Counted from the first letter of the stretch, positions 21,719 through 62,383 are shown. The stretch: DNA of 64,000 nucleotides from Bacteroidetes bacterium GWA2_32_17 (GCA_001769035.1 MENF01000106.1:17-64016), one strand, 5' to 3'. A program made the numbers and translations. Notes: generated by a model from the letters alone, not told the origin.

Positions 21719-21757
21719 GGTTTCAAGTTTCAAGTTTCAAGTTTCAAGTTTCAAGAT
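21719..21757. repeat. Heptamer tandem repeat (gtttcaa) x5
   Basis: Read directly. Confidence 0.9.
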
Positions 21758-22073: not shown

Positions 22074-22110
22074 CATTGTTATTATTGTTCACTGTTTGCA
22101 GGTTTTTCTT

Positions 22111-22390: not shown

Positions 22391-22395
22391 AAAAA

Positions 22396-27893: not shown

Positions 27894-28034
27894 TGTCTGT
27901 CCATAATGTCCGATTTCTGCGTTATTCTCGTATTAAAAAACAGTCATTTACTACAGTAAACTCCTGATTTTTTAATACTTCGAATGCCTTGAACTCGAAC
28001 ATTCTGAATCAGACACTGACTTTATAGACAAACC
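27894..28034 (+). mobile_element. MITE-like element (family with tgtctgtccataatgtc termini)
   Basis: TIR tgtctgtccataatgtc / gactttatagacaaacc. Flanked by TAAATA on both sides. Confidence 0.55.
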
Positions 28035-28405
28035 CTAAATAATATTGGCATTTTTCATACTATAGCTAACGTATTGCTTTATTGCTAAATTGCTTTACCC
28101 CGTTAGATATTTACAAATGGGGGAAATTTTTTGTTTAAATATCATTATCTAACGGGGTGAATTGTTAAGCTGATAAGTTACTAAATGGTTAATGTCCCCC
28201 TTTTTAAAGGGAGTGGGGCGATGAAAATAATGAAACAATAAAACAAAGAAGTTGCTAAATTGCTTTATTGCTAAATTTTATTTCATTGAATTTCATACAT
28301 TTGAATAAATTGTACATCAACATTCTTTTGTTAATAAAAATAAAATCATAAGAAATAACGTTAACACAACATAGCTAATTTAGCTGACTATTAAAATATA
28401 TTTAT

Positions 28406-29541: not shown

Positions 29542-30300
29542 TTGAGTTATAAATTATTGATTATGGAAGCAACTATTAGAAACCGTTATAGTATTATTAT
29601 TACAATATTCTTTCATTTTGGAATATTTGCTTTACTTTTATTATTAGGTTTTAAAACTCCTCTACCTCTTCCAGCCGAACAGGGTATTACTGTTAATTTC
29701 GGTAATTCCGATGATGGCTTTGGAATTACAGAACCTAATCAACTTCAGCAACAAAGTTCAGCTATGCAAAATAATCAGGAAGAAGTTTTAACACAAAATA
29801 TTGAAGATGCAGTTTCAATAAAAAACAATAACATAACAAATAATAATAATCAAACGCAAAACCAAAACCAGCAACAACAACAGCAAGTAAACCAAAATGC
29901 ACTTTTCCCAACAAATCAAAATAATGGCTCGAATAGCGAAGGCGAAACCCATGGAAATGGTAATCAAGGCAACCCTAATGGCGACCCAAACGTAAAAAAT
30001 CATAATGGAACTCCTAATGGAACAGGTAATTCATATTCGCTTGCAGGCAGAAACATTAAAGGAAGTTTGCCCAAACCTAATTACCCCGGAAACGAACAGG
30101 GAAAGGTAGTTGTAGAAATTTTTGTTGATAGAAGCGGCATAATTACCAAAGCTAATGCAGGAATTAAAGGTTCAACACTTTTAAGTAAAAAATATTTAGA
30201 TGCTGCATATAACGCCGCATTAAAAGCAAAATTCGATGCAAACCCCGATGCTGCTGAACTTCAAAGAGGCACGATTACTTACAATTTTATGTTTCAATAA
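29542..30300 (+). CDS. TonB-like energy transducer with a Q/N-rich linker
   Basis: N-terminal TM, low-complexity linker, C-terminal ~80 aa (GKVVVEIFVDRSGII...) TonB-C-like. Operon with exbBD. Confidence 0.6.
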   Translation: MSYKLLIMEATIRNRYSIIITIFFHFGIFALLLLLGFKTPLPLPAEQGITVNFGNSDDGFGITEPNQLQQQSSAMQNNQEEVLTQNIEDAVSIKNNNITNNNNQTQNQNQQQQQQVNQNALFPTNQNNGSNSEGETHGNGNQGNPNGDPNVKNHNGTPNGTGNSYSLAGRNIKGSLPKPNYPGNEQGKVVVEIFVDRSGIITKANAGIKGSTLLSKKYLDAAYNAALKAKFDANPDAAELQRGTITYNFMFQ

Positions 30301-30302
30301 TT

Positions 30303-30425
30303 AGTGTCGGTCCATAATGTCCGATTTTTTCGTTAGGCTTCGAACAAAACTATGGTACGGTTTAAAACCGTGCCATAGTTTGTTGAATGGCAAGCCTCAA
30401 ACTCGAAAATTATAAATCAGACACT
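30303..30425 (+). mobile_element. MITE-like element, short variant
   Basis: agtgtcggtccataatgtccga...aatcagacact, with an internal perfect hairpin ctatggtacggtttaaaaccgtgccatag. Confidence 0.5.
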
Positions 30426-32312: not shown

Positions 32313-32360
32313 ATTTAATTGATTTTGGTCGCTTCTTTACAATATTTTTGCCAAAATAAT

Positions 32361-32445
32361 TGTTTGTCCATAATGTCCGATTTTTTCGTTATGCTTCTAA
32401 CAAAACTATGGCACGGTTTTAAACCGTGCCATAGTTTGTTGAACT
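32361..32445 (+). mobile_element. MITE-like element, 5' partial copy
   Basis: tgtttgtccataatgtccgattttttcgttatgc plus the ctatggcacgg...ccgtgccatag hairpin. Confidence 0.45.
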
Positions 32446-34990: not shown

Positions 34991-35039
34991 TTTACAATTT
35001 TTAAAGTCGGAAAGTTAATAAATTTTTAAAAAATTAATA

Positions 35040-35400
35040 AAAATAAAAAGACTACTTTAAAGATAGCTTTTACAATAGACATCTTTCCAAAATAAATTAA
35101 CAACTATATGTTATTAAAATTCATTAAGGTGGTGTAAAATACAATAGATATCTTTCCAAATAAATTATTGCAAAATTATATATATTGCCACGACCTAAAG
35201 GTCGTGGAATATAAAAATAATAAATCTACTTTAAAGATAGCTTTTACAATAGACATCTTTCCAAAATAAATTAACAACTATATGTTATTAAAATTCATTA
35301 AGGTGGTGTAAAATACAATAGATATCTTTCCAAATAAATTATTGCAAAATTATATATATTGCCACGACCTAAAGGTCGTGGAATATAAAAATAATAAATT
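35040..35400. repeat. Tandem duplication, period 174 bp, two copies
   Basis: ctactttaaagatagc at 35052 and 35226. Each copy contains two caatagA(c/t)atctttccaaa motifs and the hairpin ccacgacctaaaggtcgtgg. Confidence 0.9.
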
Positions 35401-38492: not shown

Positions 38493-38580
38493 TGTCAGTC
38501 CATACAGCTATGACGGAATTTATTGTAAACATATTTCAGGACAAGACATAACGAAAAAATCGGACATTATAGACAGACTC
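38493..38580 (-). mobile_element. MITE-like element, partial, inverted orientation
   Basis: Reverse complement of 38547-38580 = gagtctgtctataatgtccgattttttcgttatg. Confidence 0.45.
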
Positions 38581-38654
38581 TTTATAAAAAATCATTTTAA
38601 TATTTATGCTTTTAAATTGAAATAACGTATTTTTACAAAAAAATAATTTGTTTT

Positions 38655-47926: not shown

Positions 47927-49987
47927 ATGAATTATATAAACAAAATATTAGTTACGGTAATATTATTTGTTGGGGTTTCATTTAACTCATATTCTCAGAA
48001 AATAACTATAAAAGACCGTATTAAAGCTGAGCATATATATAATTTTGGAGTTTATATAACATGGAAAAATAAGAGTCAATTAAAAGAATCAAAAAAATTT
48101 CAAATTGGTGTATATGGCTCAGATACAACCATGTACAGTTTATTAAAGAAAATTTGCAGTTATCGTTTGTTAAAATGGAAAAAAATTGAGATTGTACGGT
48201 TTAGCAAAATTAATGAAATTAAATATGTACCAATTCTTTACATAAGCAATTCGAGTAATAACGAAGTTCCGAAAATTGACTCAGTAATCAGCCAATGGTC
48301 AACATTACTTGTAACCGATAGTTGTAACACATTTAAAGGAACAATGATTAATTTTTTTCCACGCAATGCTTTAAAAAAAGTTGAAATTAACAAAGAAAAC
48401 ATTAATGCAAGAGGAATGAAAGTTGGAGCAATGCTATACGTTGTTGCTAAAAATTACGAAGCAGACTGGGAAACGATGTTCCAAAAAAGTGAAGAAGAAT
48501 TAGCAACTGAAAAAGAAACTGTTGAACAACAAAATATAATTTTAAAAGAACAGGAGAACAAAATAAAATTAAAAGAAGAACACATATTAAAATTAAGCAA
48601 CAATATTACAGAAAAAGAAAAAGAATTAAACTTTAAACAAGATGAACTTCACATATTGCAAAATGACATATTTAATAAAAACGAAGCACTTAACTTAACA
48701 TCTGCTATACTAAAAACACAACAATTAAAATTACTAATTCAACAAAAAGATATTAAAGAAACTCAAAAACTTTTACAAAAACAAATTGATGAATACAAAA
48801 TACAAAAATCAAAAATAGATAATCAAAGAACAGAAATTTCATCACAACAAACATTAATAGACAATCAAAAATCTAAATTAAACAGAAGTATTGCTGATTT
48901 AAAAAAGCAACAACTTGTTTTGTATTTTGTTTTAATTGTTTTGATTTTGTTCGGTTTAATGAGCGTTTTGATATATAGAAGTTATAGGATTAAAAAACGA
49001 GCTAACAAACTTTTAAAGTTAAGAAACAACGAAATTTCGAGACAAAATTCAGAAATCATTCAACAAAAAGAAGAGATTGAAACCCAACGCGACGAAATTG
49101 AAGCACAACGCGATTCTTTAGCAACACAGCGAGATAAAATTTTAGTTCAAAACAAAGATATTACCGACAGCATAACTTATGCAAGTAAAATACAACAAGC
49201 CCTTTTACCTCTCAACTTATTAACAAGTCAACTTTTTAACGAGCATTTTATTTTTTATCACCCACGAGATATTGTAAGCGGCGATTTTTATTGGACCCGA
49301 AAAAAAGGTGATATAATATACCTCGCCGTTGCCGATTGCACTGGTCATGGAGTTCCCGGTGCCTTTATGAGTATGCTTGGCGTAGCTTTTCTTAACGAAA
49401 TAATTGACAGATACAATTTACTTTCATCGGGCGAATTACTTGATAATCTTCGTGAAAAAATAATTTATTCGCTTCACCAAACCGAAAGCGATGAGAGTTC
49501 TAAAGATGGTATGGATATTTCGATTATTGGGTATAATGAAAAAACCAAAATTTTACAAATCTCCGGTGCAAATAATCCTGTTTATATAGTCAGCAGTAAG
49601 CAGTCGGCAGTAGGCAGTCAGCAGCCAGCAGTAAGCAGTGAAATGCACGAACTGCCTACTACAACTGCCTCCTGCCAACTTCTTGAATTAAAAGGCGATA
49701 AAATGCCCATAGGAATATATTATGGCGAAGAAAAGCCATTTTCAACAAAAGAAATAACAATTTACAAAAATGATTATATTTACATGTTTTCCGATGGCTT
49801 TGCCGACCAGTTTGGCGGACCAGATGGTAAAAAATTCAAATACAAAGCGTTAAAAAACTTATGTTTGCAAATAAGCAATTTAAAAAGTGAAGAACAGGAA
49901 GAAATTGTAAGAAAAGCATTTTTTGATTGGAAAAGAGATTACAAACAAGTTGATGATATTTTATTAATAGGTGTTAGATTTGAGTAA
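47927..49987 (+). CDS. Membrane PP2C (SpoIIE-type) phosphatase with an N-terminal YfiR-like periplasmic domain and coiled coil
   Basis: C-terminal ...SGDFYW...VADCTGHGVPGAFMSMLG...DGMD...FSDGFADQFGG...DDILLIGVRF. Confidence 0.75.
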   Translation: MNYINKILVTVILFVGVSFNSYSQKITIKDRIKAEHIYNFGVYITWKNKSQLKESKKFQIGVYGSDTTMYSLLKKICSYRLLKWKKIEIVRFSKINEIKYVPILYISNSSNNEVPKIDSVISQWSTLLVTDSCNTFKGTMINFFPRNALKKVEINKENINARGMKVGAMLYVVAKNYEADWETMFQKSEEELATEKETVEQQNIILKEQENKIKLKEEHILKLSNNITEKEKELNFKQDELHILQNDIFNKNEALNLTSAILKTQQLKLLIQQKDIKETQKLLQKQIDEYKIQKSKIDNQRTEISSQQTLIDNQKSKLNRSIADLKKQQLVLYFVLIVLILFGLMSVLIYRSYRIKKRANKLLKLRNNEISRQNSEIIQQKEEIETQRDEIEAQRDSLATQRDKILVQNKDITDSITYASKIQQALLPLNLLTSQLFNEHFIFYHPRDIVSGDFYWTRKKGDIIYLAVADCTGHGVPGAFMSMLGVAFLNEIIDRYNLLSSGELLDNLREKIIYSLHQTESDESSKDGMDISIIGYNEKTKILQISGANNPVYIVSSKQSAVGSQQPAVSSEMHELPTTTASCQLLELKGDKMPIGIYYGEEKPFSTKEITIYKNDYIYMFSDGFADQFGGPDGKKFKYKALKNLCLQISNLKSEEQEEIVRKAFFDWKRDYKQVDDILLIGVRFE
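49589..49684 (+). repeat. G+C-richer heptamer-periodic (cagtNNN) repeat embedded in-frame in the PP2C gene
   Basis: cagtaag/cagtcgg/cagtagg/cagtcag words, inverted repeat agtaagcagt...actgcctact. The same words occur intergenically at 12054-12072. Confidence 0.75.
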
Positions 49988-49989
49988 AA

Positions 49990-52230
49990 ATGGGCAGATT
50001 ATTTGGTCTTATTATATTTTGTTTTTTTAGCATACAATTATTCTCTCAAAAGAAAGATAAAACAACGTTAATAAAAAATATTAACAAAGAACATAATCCA
50101 ATTAAAAAAATCAATCTTATGATTGATTTAACATACAATTATTTGGATAGCGATACAACCAATTTTATTAAATTAATGAAAGATATTGAATCATATTCAA
50201 TATCAAATAATTATTTCAAAGGATTAGGAGAATATTATTACAGATTTGGCGATTACTATTACAAAAAAGGAAAATATAAAATTTCAATAACAAATTATAG
50301 AAAATCAATCCCGTATTTTCAAAAAATCTCAAATAAAAAACGAGTAGCCGATGCATTCACATGCATTGGCGTAAACTATAGCGAATTAACAATGTACAAC
50401 GATGCTATTGAACCCTATATTAATTCAGAAAAACTTTATCAAGAAATACACGATACAACCGGATTAATTCAATCTTTAATAAACCTAAGTGCTAATTACG
50501 ATGATATTAAATTAAACGAAAAAGCAAAAAAATATATTAATAAAGCATTAGAATTATCATTAAAACAAAAAGATTTTGAAAGTGCTGCATATTGTTATTT
50601 GAATTTAGGCATTTATGAAAAAAAAGAAGGCAATTTCGATAAAGCATTAGAAAACTATATTAAAGTAGAAACTTATTCTACGCAATGTTCGAATAATTAT
50701 TTACTTAGCCATGCATATGTAAATATTTCGAGTCTTTTTTTAGAAAAAAAAGAACCATATAAAGCATTGCAATTTGCTAACAAATATTTCAGATTAAATA
50801 TTAATTCTAAAGAACCAAGTATTCTTTATCAAATAAACTCTTTATTTGGAAAAGCAGAAGTAGATATTGGAAAATATTCCGAAGGAATAGTTCATTTGAA
50901 TAAAGCGTTTAATAATGCTAAAGAAATAAATACAGGCAATTTAATAATTAATGCATCAAGTAATTTAGCTGACGCATATAAAACAATTTCTAAATTCGAC
51001 AAAGCGTATTATTATATAGAATTAGCATACAACTACAGCGATTCTATATTTAGAGCAGATAATTTAAAACAAATAACAGAAGTTGAAACAAAATATCAAA
51101 CTGAAAAAAAAGAACATGAAATTGAAGTATTAAATAAAAACAAAAAACTTCAGACTCTTGAACTTGATAAAAAACAAAGAGAAATAAAGCAAAGAAATTT
51201 CATTATATACGGTATCGGATTAGTATTACTTATTATTATAGGATTCTCTGTAATGCTATACAATACATTACAACAAAAAAGAAAAGCAAATAAACTTTTA
51301 AATCAGAAGAATAATGAGATACAACAAAAAAACGAAGAAATATTATCGCAACGAGATGAAATTCAAGCACAAAGAGACGAAGTAATTTTACATCGCGATA
51401 AAATAGCATCGCAACAAAAGAAAATAACCGATAGTATTTTATACGCTAGTAGAATTCAAAACGCAGTATTACCACCACTCGAAAATATTAACATTTTACT
51501 TCCAGAACATTTTATTTTGTTTAAACCACGCGACATTGTTAGTGGCGATTTTTACTGGATTCAACAAATTAAAAACAGAACATATATTGCTGTTGCCGAT
51601 TGCACCGGGCATGGAGTGCCAGGAGCATTTATGAGCATGCTCGGAGTTGCATTTTTAAATGAAATTATTACTAAATTTAATAATCCTATAGCCGGAGATA
51701 TATTAAATCAATTAAGAATAAATGTTAAACGTTCGTTGCATCAAACCGGAAGAGTTGGTGAGCAAAAAGATGGAATGGATATTTCGTTATGTGTAATAGA
51801 TAAAGACAAAAATCAATTAGAGTTTTCGGGAGCTAATAATCCTTTATATATAGTCAGCAGTCAACAGTCGGTAGTCGGCAGTCAGCAATCGGACTGTGAA
51901 CTGAAGACTGAATACTGTGGACTAATTGAACTAAAAGGTGATAAAATGCCAATTGGTGTTTATACTACTGATGATAAACTATTTAATACTCAATATTATT
52001 CATATAATACCGGCGATACATTTTATATGTTTAGCGATGGTTATGCCGACCAATTTGGCGGTATAGACGGTAAAAAGTTTATGAAATCGAGATTTAAAAA
52101 GTTTTTGCTCGAAATAAATAATTTATCTGTAAACGAACAACAAAAACAATTAGAATATAATATTGAGCGATGGATGGGCAACAACGAACAGATTGACGAT
52201 ATTTTAGTAGTTGGTGTTCGATTTGTTTAA
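49990..52230 (+). CDS. Membrane PP2C (SpoIIE-type) phosphatase with an N-terminal TPR sensor region
   Basis: TPR-like repeats, one TM, coiled coil, and a C-terminal PP2C domain paralogous to the upstream gene. Confidence 0.75.
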   Translation: MGRLFGLIIFCFFSIQLFSQKKDKTTLIKNINKEHNPIKKINLMIDLTYNYLDSDTTNFIKLMKDIESYSISNNYFKGLGEYYYRFGDYYYKKGKYKISITNYRKSIPYFQKISNKKRVADAFTCIGVNYSELTMYNDAIEPYINSEKLYQEIHDTTGLIQSLINLSANYDDIKLNEKAKKYINKALELSLKQKDFESAAYCYLNLGIYEKKEGNFDKALENYIKVETYSTQCSNNYLLSHAYVNISSLFLEKKEPYKALQFANKYFRLNINSKEPSILYQINSLFGKAEVDIGKYSEGIVHLNKAFNNAKEINTGNLIINASSNLADAYKTISKFDKAYYYIELAYNYSDSIFRADNLKQITEVETKYQTEKKEHEIEVLNKNKKLQTLELDKKQREIKQRNFIIYGIGLVLLIIIGFSVMLYNTLQQKRKANKLLNQKNNEIQQKNEEILSQRDEIQAQRDEVILHRDKIASQQKKITDSILYASRIQNAVLPPLENINILLPEHFILFKPRDIVSGDFYWIQQIKNRTYIAVADCTGHGVPGAFMSMLGVAFLNEIITKFNNPIAGDILNQLRINVKRSLHQTGRVGEQKDGMDISLCVIDKDKNQLEFSGANNPLYIVSSQQSVVGSQQSDCELKTEYCGLIELKGDKMPIGVYTTDDKLFNTQYYSYNTGDTFYMFSDGYADQFGGIDGKKFMKSRFKKFLLEINNLSVNEQQKQLEYNIERWMGNNEQIDDILVVGVRFV
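51853..51922 (+). repeat. Heptamer-periodic (cagtNNN) repeat embedded in-frame in the second PP2C gene
   Basis: gtcagcagtcaacagtcggtagtcggcagtcagc, at the position homologous to the element in the first paralog. Confidence 0.7.
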
Positions 52231-52445
52231 TCAGTGTTTGCATGAAAACGCCAACTACTGCGTTATTATTTTAATTTTATTGTTCGACATGCTCACTTCA
52301 AGTTTTTAAGATGTTCTCCGCTTATGCGGAGCAGGCAGTTATCCCGACAAAGAATTTTGTTAGTTTTGCTAAACAAAACTTTACAAATTATAAATCGGGA
52401 GCTTCGCTAAGTTCTGAATCAAACACTGACTTTATAGACAAACTC
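52231..52445 (+). mobile_element. MITE-like element, composite copy
   Basis: Right end ctgaatcaaacactgactttatagacaaact. The interior carries the gttcgacatgctcact module also seen at 42262. Confidence 0.45.
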
Positions 52446-53023
52446 TATTTAGATGAGCTTGAACTACTTGATTTTCTGACAACAGAAGTTTTAGTTTGAC
52501 TTTTAGATTTATTTGTTGCTTTAACTGTTTTAGTTCCTTTTGGTTTTACAGTTTTTGTAGTTTTAGCAACTTTAGTAATTTTCTTTTCCACGTCTGTTTT
52601 TTCAGTTTCGGTACTTGTAACTTCTTCTTTAGTTTCAACTTCTTCTTTAAGCATATCTTTAGCTAAAAGCATGTTGTACCATGAAAAAACTTTCTTTATA
52701 TCTGAAACATAAACTCTGTTTTTATCATAATTAGGAACGACTTCTGAAAAAGCTTTAATAAGCTCATTATTAGATGATTTAACATCAATAGAAGGCTTTT
52801 TTTCAAACTTTTCGAGCATTACTTTGAATATTTCTGACAAAGGTAATTCTTTGTCATCTGTAAAAACAGCAATATCTTCTAATGAACTAATTTTGTACGA
52901 ATTAAATGCAGGCATTCTTTTGCCGTCAATTAATGATTCAACAATAATGCTATTTTTAGCTTGCGATACTACTTTAAATAAACCGTGATAACCGGTTATT
53001 GCCATAACTCCTTTTAATTTCAT
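52445..53023 (-). CDS. DUF5606-like protein with a K/T/S-rich tail
   Basis: MKLKGVMAITGYHGLFKVV... N-terminus, recalled as a conserved Bacteroidota family. Start moved to ATG 53023. Confidence 0.5.
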   Translation of the reverse strand: MKLKGVMAITGYHGLFKVVSQAKNSIIVESLIDGKRMPAFNSYKISSLEDIAVFTDDKELPLSEIFKVMLEKFEKKPSIDVKSSNNELIKAFSEVVPNYDKNRVYVSDIKKVFSWYNMLLAKDMLKEEVETKEEVTSTETEKTDVEKKITKVAKTTKTVKPKGTKTVKATNKSKSQTKTSVVRKSSSSSSSK

Positions 53024-53160
53024 AATAATCTTAAATCTGTTTTTGCAAATATATAAAGTTGAATAATAATAATACAATAATTTGCATAAATTTATTAACA
53101 TATAAACAATGTACGGGTTAATTGACAAAAAAGTAGGCTAAAAACTTTTGAACTACTTAG

Positions 53161-53327
53161 TGTCTGTCTATAATGTCCGATTTTTTCGTTATGCCCCAGT
53201 ATGCTTCGCTACGGGGTAAACTTGTTTTGAAAACAGTCATTTACATTAGTAAACTCCTTGGTTTTCAAAACTTCGCAAGCCTCAAACTCGAACATTATAG
53301 TTCAGACACTGACTTTATGGACAGACT
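53161..53327 (+). mobile_element. MITE-like element with an 8-bp target-site duplication
   Basis: TIR tgtctgtctataatgtc / gactttatggacagact (14/17). CTACTTAG at 53153-53160 and 53328-53335. Confidence 0.65.
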
Positions 53328-53388
53328 CTACTTAGTAAAAAACCTTGATAACCCCATAGATAAAAACGCATTTTAAAAGCGTGATGTA

Positions 53389-53449
53389 GTTCAACTTGGA
53401 CTTCATGCTGGGTGCTGCGCATCACATGAAGTCCTATGTATTAGCAAAT
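53389..53449 (-). repeat. Short (61-bp) attC-like site
   Basis: Minus strand: atttgctaat-acata-ggacttcatg-(17-nt loop)-catgaagtcc-aa-GTTGAAC. GTTGAAC fits GTTRRRY. Unequal spacers. Confidence 0.55.
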
Positions 53450-53538
53450 GAACTTTTTTCCTCATTACTTATAGTTTGTGTCAAAACAACTGAGGCTAAT
53501 TTAGTCTTTTTTTAGTCAGCATTATGCATGTTTGAATT

Positions 53539-54036
53539 TTATTTTATAAAGCCTATAACATCAAAGTGTCCGTTAACCTCAATTTCTTTTTTGTTATAAA
53601 ATACAGTTTCATTTTGGAAATAATAATATTTACATTTTCTATTGTATGCCAATGAATATTTAATTTCAATAGTATCAGTATCTAAATAGTTTAATTTTAG
53701 ATAAAATATTTTTAAAATCACCTGCGATTTTGCTAAATAATCAGATGATTCATTATAAATTGGAAGATAAGAAAAAATACATGAACTAGAATCAGAACTA
53801 TAAGAAAGAGGTAATAGGTTAAAGTTAAAATCAAAAAGTTTGACAGAATCTACGCAATATTCACCAATGCTATCACATATAGATGTTTGTAAGGTGTATA
53901 ATATTTGATTATTTTTATGAATATTAAAAAATGCATTAAAATTTCCATGTACTTCTTTTCCGGGTTCATGGCACCTGTCACAAGAATATAAAGCAATTAT
54001 TATAACTATAAGAATAAAGATATGGTGATATTTCAT
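53539..54036 (-). CDS. Putative lipoprotein, function unknown (cassette ORF)
   Basis: Signal peptide with lipobox ALYSC. 165 aa. Confidence 0.4.
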   Translation of the reverse strand: MKYHHIFILIVIIIALYSCDRCHEPGKEVHGNFNAFFNIHKNNQILYTLQTSICDSIGEYCVDSVKLFDFNFNLLPLSYSSDSSSCIFSYLPIYNESSDYLAKSQVILKIFYLKLNYLDTDTIEIKYSLAYNRKCKYYYFQNETVFYNKKEIEVNGHFDVIGFIK

Positions 54037-54095
54037 ATTCTATTTTTTATTTATTATTTAGTCAAACCGCTAACTTTTTCTTTTTAAGCTTATTT

Positions 54096-54224
54096 GCTAA
54101 CGTTTGGTGCTTGGAAAAACTGGGCATTAAGCAGCAGGAAGTGTCAAACCGTTAAATATTTTATATTTTGTTGTCATTGTCAATTTGTACATGTCCGCCC
54201 AGTTTTAACAAACGTGTGTTAGCG
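54096..54224 (-). repeat. attC-like imperfect palindrome
   Basis: ctaac/gttag, cgtttg/caaacg and aaaactgggc/gcccagtttt arms with asymmetric bulges. Same family as 18094-18227. Confidence 0.55.
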
Positions 54225-54230
54225 TTTAGG

Positions 54231-54420
54231 CCGTTATTTCGTTGTTTAATGTTCCGAAGTGTCAAATTTGCAGCAATGTCATTTAGCCCGTGTGTCAGAG
54301 CGGGACGGGCTGGAAGGCTCTTTGGCAAAATTTGGCTAATACGAGAGTTTGTGTGTTTTGCCAATGTGCTTGACAGCGTAAGGAAGGGAGCGTTGATTTG
54401 TTCATTTTCCTGCTTCAATT
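54231..54420. repeat. Related palindromic repeat segment
   Basis: aatgttccgaagtgtcaaatttgcagcaatgtca resembles the attC-family left arm. Hairpins agcccgt...acgggct and ttggcaaaa...ttttgccaa. Confidence 0.4.
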
Positions 54421-54589
54421 ATTTTTTTGTCCATTTTTTACACTTCTTAGTGTAAACATATTTTAGGACAAGACAATACGTACTAAATCTGCAAAATGTT
54501 ATAAGACGTTTTTCTTTTGTTTATTGCGTCTGTCATAGCAAATTTAATTTTTGCCATACTTATGTATGCACAAGTTTATTAATAGAATA

Positions 54590-54754
54590 TCATTCATTTG
54601 ATGTAGGTGGCGGAGGTGGAGGCGGTGGGGCACTTTCCTTTTGAGGAGAAGGCGGTGGAGGTGGTGGTTGAGAATCCCTCATTGGTTTTGTTTGTGCTTT
54701 CTCAATACCTTCATTTAAAGGTTTTACTTTAGGTATTTGATTTTCTTCTTCCAT
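54590..54754 (-). CDS. Possible 54-aa proline-rich micro-protein (below the ORF-track cutoff)
   Basis: ATG at 54754, TGA at 54592-54590. MEEENQIPKVKPLNEGIEKAQTKPMRDSQPPPPPPSPQKESAPPPPPPPPTSNE. Starts 17 nt after the upstream stop. Confidence 0.3.
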   Translation of the reverse strand: MEEENQIPKVKPLNEGIEKAQTKPMRDSQPPPPPPSPQKESAPPPPPPPPTSNE

Positions 54755-54771
54755 TGTTTGAATTTATTTAG

Positions 54772-55410
54772 TTAATATTTCGGTACTTCAATAATAATAT
54801 CTCTATTGCAAAAATTTAAATAAACTTCATCTATTTTATACAATTCTTTACTATCTGAATAATTGTAAACTGTAACTTTTCTTAATGATAACTCTTTATT
54901 ATTTTCATCTTCTGCCCACGAATCTACTTGACCAAGATAAGTCAGCCCATTTTTAATATCTCTTATGTAAACCCAATCAACATTATTTCTATTAAGATAA
55001 TGATAATAAAGGCTATCATCTCCGAATTTATTAGACACTTTTAATGCTTGTGCAATTTTAAAAATTCTCTTACTTTGAATAATATAAGAAATTATATACT
55101 CAATAATTAAAGAAAGTGGTAAACAAAATAAAATTTCAATTAAATGAACATCATTATCTTTTTTTATTATTGCATCCCATATATGTAAATTTTTAAATAC
55201 AAAATCGTCTTTACAAACCTGAAATAATTGAATTAGCCAATAAAGCAGTTGTAAAATAACAAAAGATATTATACCAAGTAAAATAGAACTAATAATAAAC
55301 CTAAAAGGAGTCCATTTCTTATGAATTGTTATTGATTCAACTATTAAGGTTGAAATAATTCATGGAATTAAGATTATTATTAATCTTATTGTAAAGTCAG
55401 TGTATTCCAT
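54772..55410 (-). pseudogene. Multi-TM protein gene with a single in-frame TGA at codon 17
   Basis: ATG 55410 and the ORF-track ORF 55038-54772 are in the same frame (372 nt apart). The only stop between them is TGA at 55362-55360, and there is no ATG/GTG/TTG between that TGA and 55038. Confidence 0.55.
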
Positions 55411-55441
55411 TTTTTATTTCTTTTTTCCTAATTTTTCCAAA

Positions 55442-56440
55442 TTAATGCTTCTTTGCTCGTTTCGAGATTAAATAGAATACAACAATACCAGCTATTACCA
55501 GTATAGGTCCTATCCAAATCGCATTGTATTTCAAGAACTGAAGAGCTATAGGATTACCTGTTATAGTAAGAATCAGCCCAATGAAAACAAATAGTAGTGT
55601 TCCTCCACCAATTAACCATCTATTTTGGATTGCATTAATTTCAGATGACAAGGTATCCTTAATACTTCCAGAAATACTCTGTGAAAGCTGATTAGATTTT
55701 CCATCTAAATCAGTTACTTTGGTAGTCAACTTCTCAATGGAATCATAAATAGCCCCATATTCATTAGATACATTTTTTAATTCAAGATCAATGGCTTTAA
55801 GTTTTTGTCCTAAAATATTCCAAGGATAACCAGACTTTATAAGACCTTCAAGAAGAACCTCTGGACCTCCATCTACTAATGAATTTTCCCATTCTTCTTC
55901 TTTCATTCCAACAGGTGCCCCACCACGCTTTGAACGGATATAACCTGTTTCACCTTGATAATTTCCATCGTAGACACTTTCGGGCCTTTCGTCTTTCTCT
56001 AACTTAAAAATTACAAGACGGAATATTCTTTCCTTAAACACAAACCTGCGCTCTTCGCTTGAAGTATTTGTGATGGTCCAATTCAAAGTTCCATGATAAC
56101 CTGAATCAACATGAGTGGTTGCAGCAACTATGCCCTCACGAGAAAGGTCAGTTGTTGGGCTGACAATTGCATGTAAATCGATATTTGGAAATATTTTTTC
56201 AACAGTTTCTCTGCTAAAATCTAATATCTCGAAAGCAGTTAACGCAACGGAATGACCAGGGGGAACTTTAATTCCCTTTTTCTTCTTTCCAAGTTCAAAT
56301 TCTTTATTTGCATTTAAGAATTCACCAACTTCTCCTAACCTAAGTATATACGAATTCGGTCTCACCGATGTAATGTCCCCGTTAATAATAACTGAACCAA
56401 GTAATTTCTTTATCTCATGGTCGGAAATTAAAGTAGCCAT
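55442..56440 (-). CDS. dCTP deaminase/dUTPase-fold domain protein with a coiled coil and two C-terminal TM helices
   Basis: Dcd-like motif order: LISDHEI, SYILRLG, PGHSVALTAFE, DLSREG, VDSGYHGTLNWTITN, RIFRLVIFKL, YDGNYQGE. C-terminal helices LIGGGTLLFVFIGLILTITG and IWIGPILVIAGIVVFYLI. Confidence 0.6.
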   Translation of the reverse strand: MATLISDHEIKKLLGSVIINGDITSVRPNSYILRLGEVGEFLNANKEFELGKKKKGIKVPPGHSVALTAFEILDFSRETVEKIFPNIDLHAIVSPTTDLSREGIVAATTHVDSGYHGTLNWTITNTSSEERRFVFKERIFRLVIFKLEKDERPESVYDGNYQGETGYIRSKRGGAPVGMKEEEWENSLVDGGPEVLLEGLIKSGYPWNILGQKLKAIDLELKNVSNEYGAIYDSIEKLTTKVTDLDGKSNQLSQSISGSIKDTLSSEINAIQNRWLIGGGTLLFVFIGLILTITGNPIALQFLKYNAIWIGPILVIAGIVVFYLISKRAKKH

Positions 56441-56511
56441 AATATTTTTTTTTTTGATGTTATATTTTTATGAAATGCGAATATACAACTTTTTGAATTA
56501 CCATTTTTTTA

Positions 56512-56895
56512 TTACCCCTCTACAATTTTTATTTCCTCTTCCGCTAAATCATAAATTCTATTGTAAAACCAATCATGATTGTTATTTACGATCATTCTTT
56601 CGAATGAAGTTATTTTTTTGTTTTTATTAAATTTTTTTATAATCGTATAGAGGTGTTTGTAGTTTGAATAATTTTTCAATGCGGTGTTAACCTGGTCTTT
56701 CCATAAATTAATCAGTTGAATATGATTTGTTGTTTTTTTTTGAACAGCAAATTTGTACATCTTCTCAAGGTTATGCAATAATTTCTCCATTTGCTTTTCG
56801 GTTTTATTTTGGCATAACCATTCAACATACTTGTTTTTATTAAGTATGTTATCATTTATTTTTTCCTGAATTTCAATATCTGTTCTTATTTTCAT
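56512..56895 (-). CDS. Small ORF translationally coupled to the R-M gene
   Basis: ATGA start/stop overlap with the upstream gene. C-terminus NRIYDLAEEEIKIVEG echoes the R-M C-terminus IVYQLYDLTEDEIKIIEEK. Confidence 0.4.
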   Translation of the reverse strand: MKIRTDIEIQEKINDNILNKNKYVEWLCQNKTEKQMEKLLHNLEKMYKFAVQKKTTNHIQLINLWKDQVNTALKNYSNYKHLYTIIKKFNKNKKITSFERMIVNNNHDWFYNRIYDLAEEEIKIVEG

Positions 56896-59654
56896 TTCTC
56901 CTCAATTATTTTAATTTCATCCTCTGTTAAATCGTAGAGTTGATACACGATTTCATTTATTCTGTTTTCGCAATAATCAATTTTACCTTGATTTTGCGAC
57001 ACTTTTGATTGTAGTTTTATTTCTTGTAGTTCAATATTTAATTTCAAAATTTGTTCAACTAACTTTTCAATTTCATTTTGTATTTCCTTATTTGCAGTAG
57101 CAATTGGAAGTTGTTCTAATTGTCCCATTAGAATTTGCGGAAATCCTTGTGAATTTGTTACAAGCCGTTTAGATAAATAAAATGAAAGAAATTTTGAGTT
57201 AAGTAATCCTAAAAGAAATTTAAGATTTATTTTATTACTACGTAAAATATATAAAGTGCTTTCGATTAGTTCTTGTTTGTCAGAATATGTAGCACATAAA
57301 CTGCTTCCTGTTCTTCGAATTAGCAAACGAGGAATAGTAGTTTGTTTTTTATAATCTCTTGTGCCTCCTATAATTTCTAATTTTTCATATTCTGCATATC
57401 TGTCATAATAATAACTATATCGTTTCATACAATTACCTAAAAGAAATGGCAAAGATTTTTTTGTTGGAGTTTGCGTTAGTATATCATTGCGATTTTTTAC
57501 AACCATGCCTTTTGACATTTCAACTAATTCGCCCATAAGTTTTGAGGAACTTAAAATTTTCTTGAAAAATAGTTTACTTGAATCGTCAAAGGAAACATCC
57601 CAAGATTCAAGACTTTTGTTTAATTTAATTTCTTGAATTACTTTTTGTTGTTGAGTTGTGTCGATTTTTACAATTTTAGTTTTCTCTTTTGAGTTCTTTT
57701 CGCCAACTATAATTGTTGTTCCAATAGTTGCGTCTTGAAAAACAAAATGGTCAAACGTTACAATGGAATTAAGATTAAAATTCTCTAAAATAATTTCTCT
57801 GATTTTTCCGTTACTGTCAGTTGTTAATAATGCTTCTGGAGTAATAAAAGAAAATATTTTGGGCGAAAGTTTAGAAACTTTTTCTAAAAATAACTGGAAT
57901 AGATTTTTTGAACTACCACCCGAGTAAGAATTAAAATTATTTTGGTAATAGGAAAGTAAATCAGCATCGCTGTTACTTATGGTAAGTTTTAAATATGGCG
58001 GATTTCCGATCACACAATCAAACCCACCTTGCTTAAAAATATTAGGAAATCCGTTATGCCAGTTAAATGGCTTTATTTTTTTCTCATCACCATAATCTAA
58101 TTGGTTACTATAAAAATCTGTACCAACTAAGCTATTCCCACATTTAATATTTTCGTCAAGTGTTGGTAAAACTCTTTCGTTAAACAATTTAAACTGATAA
58201 TTAATAGAAGCATTTGTTTCGCCTTCCATACATTTAAGCAATAATGAGAGCTTTGTTACTTCAACTGCGTTTACATCTATATCAACTCCGAAAATATTGT
58301 TGAGTAAAATTCTTTTCTTTTCCGCCGTTGTTAAATATCCTTCAGGTGTTAAAGTATTTTCCTTTTTTACTTTTGATGGCTTGCCATTATTAGAATAATA
58401 ATTTTTATGAAAGTCAAGCAAATACTGATAAGCACCAATTAAAAAACTACCACTGCCGCAGGCAGGGTCAACTATTTTTATTTTGCTTATTTCTTTTGGT
58501 GTTCTTCCCTCTATTAGTTTACCGACTGTGTTTTTTACGATGTATTCAACTACATATTGAGGCGTGTAATAAACTCCTCCGGCTTTTCTTACTTCGGGTT
58601 TTTCTTCAATTTTTGCATGATGTGCTTTGTCAATGGAAATGGTTTTTCCCAAAAATTGTTCGTAAGCACTGCCTAAAATTTCAACCGATAAAACAGAAAA
58701 TTCATAAGGACTTTCGGGATAATATAATTCGCTAACAATTGTCTTTATAATTTTATTTTCAATTTTTAAATTCTTGCTTATTTTATCTTTTTTTAAGTCA
58801 AAAATTCCTGAATTGTATTTGTCGTCTGCTTCCTGAAATATTTTAAAAAGATTTTGGTAATAATCACCTTGTTTTAATGCCGTTTTTAAATTTCCATAAA
58901 CCTCTACACTTCTGGCCTCTGCAATTCGTAAAAAAATTATTCTATCAATTGTTTGTTGAACAGCAAAATTAATTTCATCTTCGTCAAGGCCTTTATTATT
59001 CCAACTTATAGAAGTAGCTAAATAAGTTCTCCATTTGTCAAGCGATTGTAAAAACTCTTTGTCAACGGTAGCTGTACCTTTTTTATTTGCAGAGTTTTGT
59101 AAAAACTTATCGAAACTTCCTTTTAATACATGTTCTTTTGAAAAAGTCTCCCAAATAAAGTCAAACTTATTAAGATAATCTTTATAAGTAAAATATTCAA
59201 TTCGGGCAACTGATGCTTTGTCTGTAGGGTTTGGCTTTTTTGAACAATCATAAATTGAGAACTCTTCAAAGTCGGTGATTATGCTTATTGCTAATTTTGC
59301 ATTCCATCCGTAGCGTCTGACCTGATATGCAGGATGAATATCATCTTTAATTGCAACACTTGGTTTTTTTGCTTCAACAAAAAATAATCTTTTTCCTCCA
59401 CCAATTCTAAATGAATAGTCGGGTGCTTTTGTTGCTCCTGCAATTTTTATTTTGTCTTCGTGAATTACTTCTCTGTATGATTCTGCATAATCTTGTTCAT
59501 TGTCAATGTCCCAACCAAGTGTCTTAAAGAACGGGTCAATGAAGTCTCGCCTTGTTTGAGTTTCGTTATAATCGCTGTTTTTATATTCGTTGATATGAAA
59601 GTCAAAACGTTGAACTAATTTTTCGATTTCTATTTTTGCTTGTTCTTTAGTCAT
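56892..59654 (-). CDS. Type IIG (Eco57I/MmeI-like) fused restriction endonuclease-N6-adenine methyltransferase
   Basis: N-terminal PD-(D/E)xK-like PDYSF...FFVEAKK, SAM motif VDPACGSGSFL, catalytic NPPY, C-terminal specificity-like domain. 920 aa. Confidence 0.85.
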   Translation of the reverse strand: MTKEQAKIEIEKLVQRFDFHINEYKNSDYNETQTRRDFIDPFFKTLGWDIDNEQDYAESYREVIHEDKIKIAGATKAPDYSFRIGGGKRLFFVEAKKPSVAIKDDIHPAYQVRRYGWNAKLAISIITDFEEFSIYDCSKKPNPTDKASVARIEYFTYKDYLNKFDFIWETFSKEHVLKGSFDKFLQNSANKKGTATVDKEFLQSLDKWRTYLATSISWNNKGLDEDEINFAVQQTIDRIIFLRIAEARSVEVYGNLKTALKQGDYYQNLFKIFQEADDKYNSGIFDLKKDKISKNLKIENKIIKTIVSELYYPESPYEFSVLSVEILGSAYEQFLGKTISIDKAHHAKIEEKPEVRKAGGVYYTPQYVVEYIVKNTVGKLIEGRTPKEISKIKIVDPACGSGSFLIGAYQYLLDFHKNYYSNNGKPSKVKKENTLTPEGYLTTAEKKRILLNNIFGVDIDVNAVEVTKLSLLLKCMEGETNASINYQFKLFNERVLPTLDENIKCGNSLVGTDFYSNQLDYGDEKKIKPFNWHNGFPNIFKQGGFDCVIGNPPYLKLTISNSDADLLSYYQNNFNSYSGGSSKNLFQLFLEKVSKLSPKIFSFITPEALLTTDSNGKIREIILENFNLNSIVTFDHFVFQDATIGTTIIVGEKNSKEKTKIVKIDTTQQQKVIQEIKLNKSLESWDVSFDDSSKLFFKKILSSSKLMGELVEMSKGMVVKNRNDILTQTPTKKSLPFLLGNCMKRYSYYYDRYAEYEKLEIIGGTRDYKKQTTIPRLLIRRTGSSLCATYSDKQELIESTLYILRSNKINLKFLLGLLNSKFLSFYLSKRLVTNSQGFPQILMGQLEQLPIATANKEIQNEIEKLVEQILKLNIELQEIKLQSKVSQNQGKIDYCENRINEIVYQLYDLTEDEIKIIEEK

Positions 59655-59844
59655 TGAATATTTTATTTTCTCAAAAATACAATTAATAATATTATGAAGG
59701 GTCGGAAAAAAAGCATGTGTGTGACTGCGAAGGGATGCATGCAGGGACGGGCAGTAAACACTCTTGCTTTTTGTGTGTCGGGGAATACCACAATTTTGTC
59801 ATTTTGCTGCAAATATTCCGAATCTCTGTCTTTTTTTACGGCTT

Positions 59845-59914
59845 AAAGTTAACTAATCGCTATGTGTACCTTATCCGACATTAATTGTTTACAACCATTT
59901 ATAAGCATTTGCTT
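59845..59914 (-). repeat. Direct repeat, copy 1 (aaagttaactaat...acattaattgtttacaaccatttataagcatttgctt)
   Basis: Matches 60788-60929 except for a ~75-nt insertion in the latter. Confidence 0.85.
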
Positions 59915-60002
59915 TAGTTTATTAAAAAATTGCTATTACAAATTTATTAAATTATTTGTTACAAACATAAAAAAAAATATTTTCATTTATTGTTTGAATT
60001 TA

Positions 60003-60134
60003 AAATAACGGTTGGCGCTTAAAAAATCTGGGCATTTAACCAACGTCATTATCAAACCGCCACAAAGTTACGAATTATTTTATAATTGTCAAGTTGCTAC
60101 ACAAGCCCAGTTTTTTTTAAACGTGTGTTAGTGC
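60003..60134 (-). repeat. attC-like imperfect palindrome
   Basis: Begins 12 nt after the antitoxin stop. Minus-strand boxes CACTAAC...GTTATTT. ctgggc/gcccag and A/T-run arms. Same family as the other long copies. Confidence 0.5.
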
Positions 60135-60145
60135 ATATTGTTATA

Positions 60146-60454
60146 TTAGAATTGTAGTGATAGTTTCAAATGCCCACCAAGTCCTTGTTGAATTATTTTC
60201 ATTAATGTAGAAAGTCTGATGTCGCTAGCATTGTTCTCGATGCGTGAAATATAAGATTTATTAGTTCCGCATTTTTCAGCAAGTTCTTCTTGAGTCATGC
60301 CTAGTTTAATTCTTGCTTCTTCAAGAAGAACACCAAGTCTAAATGCTTCAAATTCTTGTTCCCATTCTTCACGCTTTTTAACTCCTCGTTTTCCATATTT
60401 TTTGTCAAGGAGTTCGTCCAATGATGTTAGATTTTTATTTGCTTTATTTTTCAT
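60146..60454 (-). CDS. XRE-family HTH antitoxin (HigA-like)
   Basis: 102 aa. HTH segment MTQEELAEKCGTNKSYISRIENN. Overlaps the toxin gene by 11 nt. Confidence 0.8.
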   Translation of the reverse strand: MKNKANKNLTSLDELLDKKYGKRGVKKREEWEQEFEAFRLGVLLEEARIKLGMTQEELAEKCGTNKSYISRIENNASDIRLSTLMKIIQQGLGGHLKLSLQF

Positions 60455-60782
60455 TGCTATATTCCTCCATTATTTTAAGTGCTCGTTCGATTTCTCGTTT
60501 TGGTGTTTTTTGTGTTTTCTTTTGAAATGCATTTCCGAGAACAACTAGATTCCCTTTGTCAAAGAATGAAAATATTCTATAAATATTCCCACCAACTTCA
60601 ACTCTTACTTCATATAGTCCCTTTTTGCTTTCAATATGTTTAAAATATTTTTCAGGTACTTGCCTTGTTACTCTAATTAAATTTAATGTCCACTCAATTT
60701 TAGCCTGAACACTGTCTGTCTGTTCAGTATAAAAGTCTAGAAAATAGTTTTTATAAGCTACTACTTGTCTTACGAGATTCAT
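60444..60782 (-). CDS. RelE/ParE-superfamily toxin (HigB / Gp49-like)
   Basis: 112 aa. ...GLYEVRVEVGGNIYRIFSFFDKGNLVVLGNAFQKKTQKTP pattern. Toxin-first gene order. Confidence 0.75.
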   Translation of the reverse strand: MNLVRQVVAYKNYFLDFYTEQTDSVQAKIEWTLNLIRVTRQVPEKYFKHIESKKGLYEVRVEVGGNIYRIFSFFDKGNLVVLGNAFQKKTQKTPKREIERALKIMEEYSNEK

Positions 60783-60787
60783 GGCAC

Positions 60788-60929
60788 AAAGTTAACTAAT
60801 TAGACAACATTTTCCAAATTTTTTCTTAATTATTTTAGGGCACGTCTTTTTTATGCATTAGCACTTACTAGTAGCTATGTATGATATATCCAACATTAAT
60901 TGTTTACAACCATTTATAAGCATTTGCTT
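60788..60929 (-). repeat. Direct repeat, copy 2
   Basis: See 59845-59914. On the minus strand it contains TAACTTTG (fits the Bacteroidota -7 box TAnnTTTG) 4 nt before the toxin ATG. Confidence 0.85.
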
Positions 60930-61003
60930 AAAACATTTTGTAAAGATTATATACTTAACATTAAAATACTGTATTACAGATAAATAATTTTAAAAAAATA
61001 AAC

Positions 61004-62056
61004 TCAATTATACTTCGATAAAAGCACATCAAGTTTATTGAAAGTATCTTCGTTACCTTTTTGGGTGTAACAGATAATGCTTGTTCTATAAATATTTAAA
61101 TTATCTAAAAATTCAGAAATTCCTTTTGAATTAAATTCTGTCAAATGTTTTCCATAACTGAGTTTTTCGATATAAGCGGCATTCATAAATTGTTCAAACT
61201 GATTTTTAATTGGAAATGAACAAACAGGTTTTTTTAAGTAAACAGCCTCGCTTATTAACGAATAGCCGCCATTTGTTATAACAGCATTTGAAGTTGCAAG
61301 GTCGTTAATAAAACCGTCTTCGCTGAATTTTTTTAAAATGCAGTTTCCTTTTACTTCATCAATATTAAAGCCATAAACAAGAAATTTTTCATTTTCAACT
61401 TCATTTAAAATTTTCGTAAGATTTTGCTGACTTGATGAAGTTTGATAAACCAAAATATGATTTTGATATACTGTTTTTGCATTTATTATTTCATTTCTTA
61501 ATATTGGAGGAATAAATTCAGTATTTTCCTTAATTATTTTCGAGTCAAAAAAAGTGGAAAGCAAATAATGGTTGCAATCAGGAACACGATATTTGCATAT
61601 TGTTTTTGCCAGATTATAATTAAATTTTTCTTCGCTTGGAATTTTAATATCGAGTTTACAACGGCTCAATACCTGTATGTTATCAACGTCAATAATTGGA
61701 ACTTTTAAAAATTTCCCATACAAATATGCCGATGTTTCAAAATCAGTTATAACAATATCAGGAATAAATTCTTTATGTATTTTTTTGTATGTTGTTATAT
61801 TTTCAAATAAATCGTGTGGCGATTTTTTTAAAATGCTTTGCAAAGTTTTAAGTTTTTCAATTCCGCCATCTTTGTAAACGAAGTTTAATCCTTTTATTTC
61901 ATAAACTCTATTTGGAAATTGTTTATTCAAAAACTCAAAAGCCCTGTTGCTCGAAACAATTCTTACATCATGATTTTCGAGCAAATGAGTAATAATAACT
62001 TTACTGCGGGTAGCATGCCCCATTCCCTCACCTGGTACACCATACAGTATTTTCAT
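61004..62056 (-). CDS. Glycosyltransferase (GT28/MurG-like fold family)
   Basis: N-terminal MKILYGVPGEGMGHATRS glycine-rich loop, 350 aa, C-terminal ...NGGYSLISEA... motif. Confidence 0.65.
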   Translation of the reverse strand: MKILYGVPGEGMGHATRSKVIITHLLENHDVRIVSSNRAFEFLNKQFPNRVYEIKGLNFVYKDGGIEKLKTLQSILKKSPHDLFENITTYKKIHKEFIPDIVITDFETSAYLYGKFLKVPIIDVDNIQVLSRCKLDIKIPSEEKFNYNLAKTICKYRVPDCNHYLLSTFFDSKIIKENTEFIPPILRNEIINAKTVYQNHILVYQTSSSQQNLTKILNEVENEKFLVYGFNIDEVKGNCILKKFSEDGFINDLATSNAVITNGGYSLISEAVYLKKPVCSFPIKNQFEQFMNAAYIEKLSYGKHLTEFNSKGISEFLDNLNIYRTSIICYTQKGNEDTFNKLDVLLSKYN

Positions 62057-62257
62057 ATATTTGTGATGTTTAATTCAAAAACTAATCCAATACCCAAATA
62101 ACAAATTCTAAAATTCAAAAATAAATCAATGCTCAATTAACAACATATAGTTTGCAATATTCAGATTCTTCGCTAATCACTCAGAATGACAAAAATGGAA
62201 TAGTAAACTATGAACATTTTTGAACTATAAACCATAAACCCGAAACTTTTTTTATTG

Positions 62258-62346
62258 GTTTAGGGTTTTTAGTTTGAGGTTTTTAGTTTGAGGTTTTTGG
62301 TTTGAGGTTTTTGGTTTGAGGTTTTTGGTTTGAGGTTTTTGGTTGT
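62258..62346. repeat. 14-bp tandem repeat (gtttgag+gtttttg), ~6 units, i.e. GTTTNNN heptamer array
   Basis: Read directly. Flanked by NNNAAAC heptamer runs at 62224-62247 and 62350-62375. Confidence 0.9.
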
Positions 62347-62383
62347 TAAAAACTTTGAACTCGAAACTATAAACTGGTTAAAC

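Follow-up and report, generated by a model that had tools for sequence, protein, structure and literature searches.

The window, as the whole stretch of DNA analyzed here is called, comprises 64,000 nucleotides (nt) of Bacteroidetes bacterium GWA2_32_17 (MENF01000106.1:17-64016). It is a chromosome segment of 30% G+C from an uncultured Bacteroidota-like organism, and contigs identical to it originate from groundwater metagenomes. Housekeeping genes are found across the window (those of an EF-G-family GTPase, TsaD, Obg, Adk, DnaJ, and GrpE), and type IX secretion tails are also encoded. The subject of this report is a region that resembles the gene cassette array of an integron. It is located on the minus strand, as are all array features described below, between a glycosyltransferase gene (61004-62056, minus strand; Pfam Glyco_trans_1_3), which anchors the array in the chromosome on its upstream side, and a DUF5606/DUF6852 gene (52445-53128). 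Read along this strand, the region consists of a HigBA toxin-antitoxin cassette, a segment without an open reading frame (ORF), a defense block, and a lipoprotein cassette; the attC-like sites A, B, and C end the first, third, and last of these. The G+C content of the single units was uninformative. No tRNA genes were found in the window as possible integration targets, and an Rfam search of the whole window gave no match at gathering thresholds, in a database that holds no attC family.

The HigBA cassette (60009-60867) extends from TAAGTGCTAATGCATAAAAAAGAC to the G of site A. It encodes a HigB-like toxin of 112 aa (60444-60782; Gp49/DUF891, Pfam PF05973, E = 2.5e-20) and a HigA-like antitoxin of 102 aa (60146-60454; HTH_3, Pfam PF01381, E = 2.8e-14), and the two genes overlap by 11 nt. 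Gene order and protein families assign the predicted pair to the type II toxin-antitoxin systems, and a promoter-like TAACTTTG box of its own seems to lie just 5' of the start codon. Site A (60009-60134) has the inverse core GCACTAAC at 60134-60127 and a crossover between G 60009 and TT 60008-60007. It scores 116 bits against the hidden Markov model (HMM) of the site family described below and has a 14-bp stem in the centroid fold of single-stranded DNA. In integron cassettes, the bases that follow the G/TT crossover at the start (the slash marks the cut) complement the inverse core at the end of the same unit, a relation called the cassette rule or junction rule here. In HigBA, 7 of 8 bases of the left junction are complementary to the inverse core of the cassette itself (the core and 4 of 5 variable positions).

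Comparison with related genomes, whose loci are cited by L numbers, establishes the mobility of this unit. Units at L022:6171-6934 and L025:219-1019 match it with 90-92% identity but have different left flanks. Homology with both units begins at window position 60861, and because it begins there, the left junction is placed at G(60868)/TAAGTGC; the GTTAAGT box at 60953-60959, chosen by the original prediction that had been made from the sequence alone, was misplaced by about 90 nt. As judged from these alignments, the HigBA unit is a mobile cassette. The position 3' of the glycosyltransferase orthologues is also variable: it is without cassettes in L043, holds four extra genes in L042, and in L041 holds a Zeta-toxin cassette with a family attC, which starts about 25 nt past the glycosyltransferase stop. 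The comparison of related genomes for presence and absence, which the original prediction had proposed, has thus revealed HigBA in three genomes and four different states downstream of the glycosyltransferase gene, the window array included.

The ORF-less segment (59853-60008; 19% G+C) consists of 94 AT-rich nt and a repeat, X2 (59853-59914), that ends ...CATAGCGATTAG with a junction G at 59853. The other copy, X1 (63 nt, 60868-60929), ends ...CATAGCTACTAG with the junction G at 60868 and holds the left junction of HigBA. The two copies are 87% identical, and both upstream junctions sit at X ends. In L017, the junction at the end of an X-like copy follows the rule in 10 of 10 bases. Repeat X was considered as a decayed family attC and rejected, as no match appeared in a sensitive HMM search and no stable fold was obtained.

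The lipoprotein cassette (53395-54100) starts with TTAGCAAAT, contains one ORF (53539-54036, 165 aa, lipobox LYSC), and ends with site C. Site C (53395-53449) is of a short type, 55 nt to the crossover G, with the inverse core ATTTGCTAAT, the stem GGACTTCATG/CATGAAGTCC, and the crossover G at 53395 followed by TTGAAC. Its 10-bp stem has z = -3.0, and none of 200 shuffled sequences folded as well. The earlier description of a 61-nt site ending in G/TTGAAC with spacers of 5 and 2 nt was correct. This cassette obeys the cassette rule: TTAGCAAAT and ATTTGCTAA of site C are complementary at 5 of 5 variable positions and in 9 of 10 bases overall, which establishes an intact junction, as in HigBA. 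No homologue of site C was found in the fetched loci. Just after site C, a sequence resembling a miniature inverted-repeat transposable element (MITE) at 53165-53340 splits the arms of a 9-bp inverted repeat, TTGAACTAC/GTAGTTCAA. It has terminal inverted repeats (GTGTCTGTCYATAATGTC...) and, at this 53-kb copy, an 8-bp duplication, CTACTTAG; further MITE-like copies are at about 27874-28044, 30285-30425, 32341-32443, and 38520-38581.

The defense block (54225-59852) begins with the canonical cassette 5' signature TTAACTTTAAGCCGTAAAAAAAGACAG and has no attC between its genes. Its largest gene (56892-59654) encodes a restriction-modification enzyme of 920 aa (PADLOC REase_MTase_IIG, E = 1e-188; Pfam HSDR_N, Eco57I, N6_Mtase, TaqI_C); a single polypeptide with an N-terminal nuclease, a gamma-class N6-adenine methylase, and a TaqI_C specificity domain is characteristic of type IIG. 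The start of a 127-aa ORF (56512-56895) without family match overlaps the stop of this gene. The next gene (55442-56440) encodes a dCTP-deaminase-like protein of 332 aa (Pfam DCD, 26.6 bits, just under the cut-off), in which a hydrophobic stretch lies close to the C-terminal end. It has 401 homologues, and in other phyla the gene is found alone or in phage-like settings, with neither a restriction-modification gene nor attC. The following part (54590-55410) is decayed and has no family matches: an in-frame TGA near 55360 interrupts ORF 54772-55410, which is probably a pseudogene, because TGA ends other genes here, and a proline-rich ORF of 54 aa lies at 54590-54754. The block also includes 360 nt of non-coding DNA. 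G+C-richer non-coding stretches at its two ends (54240-54600 and 59655-59852) have the short motifs GCCCGTCCC and ACACACAAA in common and form local hairpins.

Site B (54101-54224) closes this block, with its crossover between G 54101 and TT 54100-54099, a family HMM score of 140 bits, and, as single-stranded DNA, a hairpin of -20.1 kcal/mol (z = -3.0 versus shuffles). Alignment with 40 family members and the fold both identify CGCTAAC (54218-54224) as its inverse core. The original prediction had read the boundaries of the region from two pairs of complementary strings on the minus strand, CCGTTATTT (60011-60003) against AAATAACGG (54239-54231) and TTAGCAAAT (54100-54092) against ATTTGCTAA (53449-53441), all four of which are present at these positions. 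The second pair is the lipoprotein junction, and there the rule held. For the defense block it failed, with only 1-2 of 5 variable positions complementary. The AAATAAC box (54233-54239) taken as the inverse core lies upstream of CGCTAAC, its last base 9 nt before the start of the core, and is not homologous to it. In the 9-mer match itself, 6 of the 9 bases are either conserved throughout the family (CCGTTA) or left of the crossover.

Sites A and B are two of four copies in the window of one family of ~130-nt sites, all four of which are on the minus strand, immediately 3' of a gene. A pattern scan with the conserved arm detected 34 loci, nearly all in genome bins of uncultured Bacteroidota; counted in other Bacteroidota genomes, the family has about 30 loci. 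Profile HMM searches of relatives revealed same-strand arrays of 3-5 sites with a spacing of 0.4-3.7 kb. The aligned sites consist of variable bases, YTAAC, ACAC, GTTTGG.AAAAACTGGGC, then in turn TTGACAATGACAACAA, TAACGGTTTGAC, and GCCCAGCTTTTCCAAGCGCCAAAC, and finally G/TTA with variable bases again. The TAAC and GTTA cores are near-invariant and the site ends are variable; because variable ends flank conserved cores, the ends are cassette-specific, as in attC. The consensus fold has 22 stem pairs, and compensatory changes are found in 14 of them. Two arm subtypes, GGAAAAGCTGGGC/GCCCAGTTTTTRCC and GGATTTGGCAGGC/GCCTGCTAAATWCC, retain the same mismatch and bulge positions. In the alignment, an asymmetric loop between the R box and the stem is conserved, and one bulged purine and one mismatch are common to both subtypes. 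The existence of the family and the covariation of its folded stem are established by these data.

The junction rule was examined in the relatives by comparing the five variable bases after GTTA with the five before the TAAC of the next same-strand site. Complementarity was complete in 18 of 24 adjacent pairs and reached 4 of 5 in two more, versus 48 of 2856 complete matches (1.7%) in an all-against-all control. This establishes the rule for the family, and such complementarity of sequence would be hard to explain without site-specific recombination at G/TT. The earlier claim that the palindromes are attC-like sites of integron type is supported. One of the rule-obeying pairs spans an IS3 insertion, another encloses a two-gene restriction-modification cassette, and multi-gene cassettes of 2.3-3.7 kb also obey the rule. 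The cargo in relatives includes toxin-antitoxin systems, restriction-modification systems, and secreted proteins. Moreover, 56 family junctions yielded a cassette 5' signature: GTTA, 4-5 variable bases, C or T followed by AA, and then a run of A.

Two side observations concern this family. Some of the sites are hybrids, with the 5' arm of one subtype and the 3' arm of the other (window 18101-18225, L037:1103-1265, and L025:944-1105), and they cannot fold, because the arms come from different subtypes; they look like products of homologous recombination between sites via the conserved center. In three family sites, an element end, TGTGACGTCCTAAAATATG, is found 13-16 nt past the crossover (L020:2700-3990, L011 at about 7610, and L013 at about 490). 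In L020 the element belongs to the IS3 family (HTH_Tnp_1 and rve), which suggests an insertion sequence targeting cassette starts.

A second array at 15.6-19.9 kb of the window, like both copies of repeat X, was absent from the original prediction. It opens with an attI-like site (19881-19930; AGATATAAT..ATACTCCCAACTGGTTGGGAATAGCGAACTG/TTACCTGC), which aligns with sites after recombinase genes in L020 and L038. A tblastn search with seven full-length homologues of these recombinases found no such gene or pseudogene 5' of it. The first cassette (18101-19879) carries the defense gene PD-Lambda-1 (DUF4041/T5orf172; PADLOC E = 3e-180) and a family attC at 18101-18225. All 9 bases compared between its left junction, GTTACCTGC, and the inverse core, GCAGGTAAC, are complementary, and a homologue of the cassette is present in L020. 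The next cassette (17173-18100) contains an ORF of 169 aa (17325-17834), and its junction GTTAGCGG complements CCGCTAAC in 7 of 7 bases. It carries a strong attC-like palindrome of another type at 17173-17298 (-26.9 kcal/mol, z = -4.3). The rest of the array, which extends from 15600, holds a type IX-secreted protein gene and then a degenerate family site. Like this palindrome, sites A, B, and C are imperfect palindromes with a 5' AAC and a 3' GTT core of the attC kind (~57-141 nt), and the full RYYYAAC/GTTRRRY consensus is matched only partially in the window sites. The two adjacent cassettes of the second array have in common a leader of about 215 nt, 90% identical (17860-18095 and 19657-19871), that starts after the differing junction bases (AATCCCCCCTATACC...) and may be a common promoter or regulatory leader.

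No tyrosine recombinase was detected in the 64-kb window by motif scan or by tblastn with the recombinases of the relatives, as the original prediction had said of the integrase. In array-bearing relatives, a tyrosine recombinase of 530-670 aa is found; in L020 its gene is directly upstream of the array, on the cassette strand. It has the domains Phage_int_SAM_4 and Phage_integrase with the catalytic motifs HxLRH...LGH...Y. Its best NCBIfam match is the integron integrase TIGR02249, with 220 bits, a score that falls short of the 265-bit cut-off and is on a par with that for archaeal XerA. The alignment with VchIntIA falls into two pieces, and 27 residues take the place of 70 in IntI, so that about 43 aa are lacking and the IntI-specific insertion is absent; the C-terminal SPLD aligns with the C-terminal SPL of VchIntIA. 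Full-length homologues are extended at the N terminus by ~270 aa, a region that contains repeated W...W.IP modules and matches no Pfam family. The 120 homologues listed are 58-85% identical and 474-668 aa long, nearly 8000 are found at E <= 1e-30, and the names given, where there are any, are XerD or tyrosine recombinase. A conserved sequence ending AAGTG/TTA is located 200-300 nt 3' of the recombinase in L020 and L038 and obeys the rule with the first cassette in 9 of 9 and 10 of 10 bases. The contigs of L038, L039/L040, L047, and L048 end 0.2-1.6 kb past the recombinase gene, as is expected before a repeat array. The window array is not a complete integron, as defined by an IntI with the additional domain adjoining an array.

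These observations may be combined in one scheme. Each unit would once have been a circular cassette with a single imperfect-palindrome attC-like site. Cutting at G/TT within the GTTA core, a tyrosine recombinase would have linked the cassette with a further site of this kind. Because the cut falls between G and TT and a different site is joined there, the bases after G/TTA at the cassette start would complement the bases before TAAC in the cassette's own site. The enzyme would be encoded elsewhere in the genome and be of the IntI-related kind, 530-670 aa and without the IntI-specific insertion, that lies directly 5' of arrays in relatives. Two X copies around HigBA and the 94-nt spacer form the arrangement that would be expected if a circle with one X had integrated into a chromosomal X. 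The HigBA pair may stabilize the array, as toxin-antitoxin cassettes do in sedentary chromosomal integrons. The region is thus, very probably, an orphan and partly decayed cassette array of integron type, located 3' of a chromosomal glycosyltransferase gene. The array is real and lacks an integrase, and it is an integron-style variant described nowhere in the literature found; the literature search, of incomplete coverage, returned no description of the site family or of the recombinase.

Several points weigh against this interpretation. The total folding energy of site A is no better than that of shuffled sequences (z = +0.3), and no fold was obtained for the family copies at 18.1 kb and 15.6 kb, the former having one arm from each subtype. 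Repeat X carries two junctions, yet it has neither detectable homology to the family nor a stable fold. Of the two possible starts of the defense block, TTATTTT after site A (60008) complements CGCTAAC at 1 of 5 positions and TTAACTTT (59852) at 2 of 5. The recombinase is absent from the window and none is tied to the host genome, and the link between recombinase and arrays consists of two rule-verified loci plus the contig-end patterns. No recombination was observed: contigs of the same organism are 99.98-100% identical across the region, with no within-species polymorphism.

The last-but-one unit raises the question of whether the 5.8-kb defense block, from 60008 or 59852 to 54101, forms a single intact cassette of several genes, which the original prediction had proposed. 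It has a perfect cassette 5' signature at the start, a family site at the end, and no internal attC, rule-obeying multi-gene cassettes are known in relatives, and the TTATTT/AAATAA match noted earlier is present. The hairpin-pairing core of site B, however, complements neither candidate left junction, and the left junction expected from it, GTTAGCGTTT, is found nowhere upstream except for a chance 8/10 match inside the restriction-modification gene. The dCTP-deaminase-like gene stands alone elsewhere, and the block contains a broken ORF and non-coding DNA. A single intact cassette is therefore improbable. No terminal inverted repeats were found around the block, where the best inverted match, 11 nt, was below shuffled controls. 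The block probably arose by fusion of two or more former cassettes or by some other rearrangement, and it would no longer be excisable as a unit, because it has a genuine cassette start but ends in site B. At the level of the palindromes, a role as intergenic repeats similar to repetitive extragenic palindromic (REP) elements or MITEs, acting as terminators or mRNA stabilizers with no part in gene movement, would fit the dispersal of four copies over 64 kb, each just 3' of a gene, the loss of folding in some of them, and the presence of other intergenic repeat families, including the true MITE next to site C. This explanation has very little to recommend it once the junctions are considered. 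It does not predict a rule followed by three quarters of adjacent pairs at a chance level below two in a hundred, cassette-specific site ends that are complementary between neighbors, a HigBA unit between different neighbors in three genomes, or arrays that begin beside a tyrosine recombinase; MITE-type target-site duplications and terminal repeats are also absent. Cassette-sized differences in gene content at the junctions likewise contradict the view of ordinary REP-like elements without such variation.

If an array of integron type is accepted, the enzyme and its substrate may still be of another kind than proposed here. A classical IntI with the IntI-specific domain, encoded elsewhere, could serve the sites, in which case the adjacent recombinase would be unrelated, such as a Xer-type enzyme or the integrase of a mobile element. 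The site architecture (AAC...GTT cores, G/TT crossover, ~130 nt) is that of classical attC, integrons are on record for Bacteroidota (PMC8618304, PMC9024848), and the adjacent recombinase scores equally against archaeal XerA and IntI. We nevertheless consider this unlikely. The first rule-obeying junction in L020 and L038 is within conserved sequence only 200-300 nt past the recombinase, five further homologues are at contig ends, as expected upstream of repeat arrays, and a search of ~400 kb of fetched loci, by motif and by tblastn with these recombinases only, revealed no classical IntI. Alternatively, the recombinase might act on double-stranded inverted-repeat sites in the manner of Xer/dif rather than on folded single strands. 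An enzyme equally close to XerA and without the insertion by which IntI contacts extrahelical bases is consistent with such a mode, and the covariation of the inverted repeats would fit two symmetric duplex binding arms as well as a hairpin. The stems are long, however, with 22 pairs, the bulge and mismatch positions are kept while arm sequences swap, and the central spacer is asymmetric; features of this sort are typical of folded attC and needless for duplex core sites of ~30 bp. Duplex sites are an unlikely alternative.

The array and its relatives share many properties with integron arrays and with clusters of attC sites lacking integrases (CALINs). In both, a ~130-nt imperfect palindrome with AAC and GTT cores comes after each gene or small group of genes along a single strand, the crossover is at G/TT, the cassette start complements its own inverse core, the site family is homogeneous within the lineage, and the cassettes carry toxin-antitoxin and anti-phage defense genes, as is reported for Vibrio. 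As in CALINs, no integrase is near the window array, and at least two attC sites are clustered, sites B and C being 0.7 kb apart and those at 18.1 and 17.2 kb being 0.9 kb apart. The default clustering distance of IntegronFinder is 4 kb; at 5.8 kb away from site B, site A would probably be separated from the cluster. Unlike known arrays, those of the window are short and scattered among housekeeping genes, beyond the R' box their cassette starts have an extra signature ((C/T)AA and the A-run), and the host is an uncultured Bacteroidota of 30% G+C, in a group where IntegronFinder 2.0 reported very few elements (PMC9024848). Defense cassettes are already known in Vibrio chromosomal integrons (bioRxiv 10.1101/2024.07.02.601686).

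The recombinase of the relatives resembles IntI (TIGR02249; VchIntIA, PDB 2A3V) in its best NCBIfam match, integrase domains, catalytic motifs, and SPL end. It differs in its score under the cut-off, the missing IntI-specific insertion, the ~270-aa N-terminal addition, and the orientation of its gene, which is on the cassette strand and not divergent. Insertion of cassettes at secondary genomic sites (attG) has been shown for classical IntI (bioRxiv 10.1101/2022.09.11.507474). Single cassettes or short arrays located off-platform beside housekeeping genes, such as the Zeta-toxin cassette of L041, resemble this process; attG insertion is known for a classical IntI, whereas here it is suggested by the arrangement of sequences.

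A wider proposition, that uncultured Bacteroidota hold their own widespread integron-like system, is in our view evenly balanced between acceptance and rejection. Such a system would comprise an IntI-related recombinase with a long repeat-containing N-terminal extension and without the domain presumed to be required for reading folded attC, encoded on the cassette strand, with its own attI-like site and cassette-start signature. Its cargo would be toxin-antitoxin, anti-phage, and type IX-secreted proteins, and short orphan arrays would be scattered on the chromosome. Bacteroidota are regarded as poor in integrons, and the IntI-specific domain counts as an integron hallmark. If a recombinase without this domain serves the arrays, searches tied to IntI would miss a whole branch and see only orphan attC clusters, and a natural variant would be available for testing how attC strands are recognized. 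In the arrays, restriction-modification systems, PD-Lambda-1, and toxin-antitoxin pairs are also seen to move as cassettes, here in an environmental phylum beyond the Vibrio model.

Other repeats are also present in the window, outside the arrays. Intergenic short tandem repeats with periods of 7, 11, 14, and 23 nt are found at 1594-1863, 12051-12161, 21703-22407, 49553-49637, 51817-51928, and 62248-62349. Twelve copies of TCAATCTTGTCTTCCCAATCTAT-like units are located at 22.1-22.4 kb, and related units appear at several sites. In addition, an intergenic or unannotated stretch at 35037-35384 is a perfect tandem duplication of a 174-nt unit, the copies being 98% identical.

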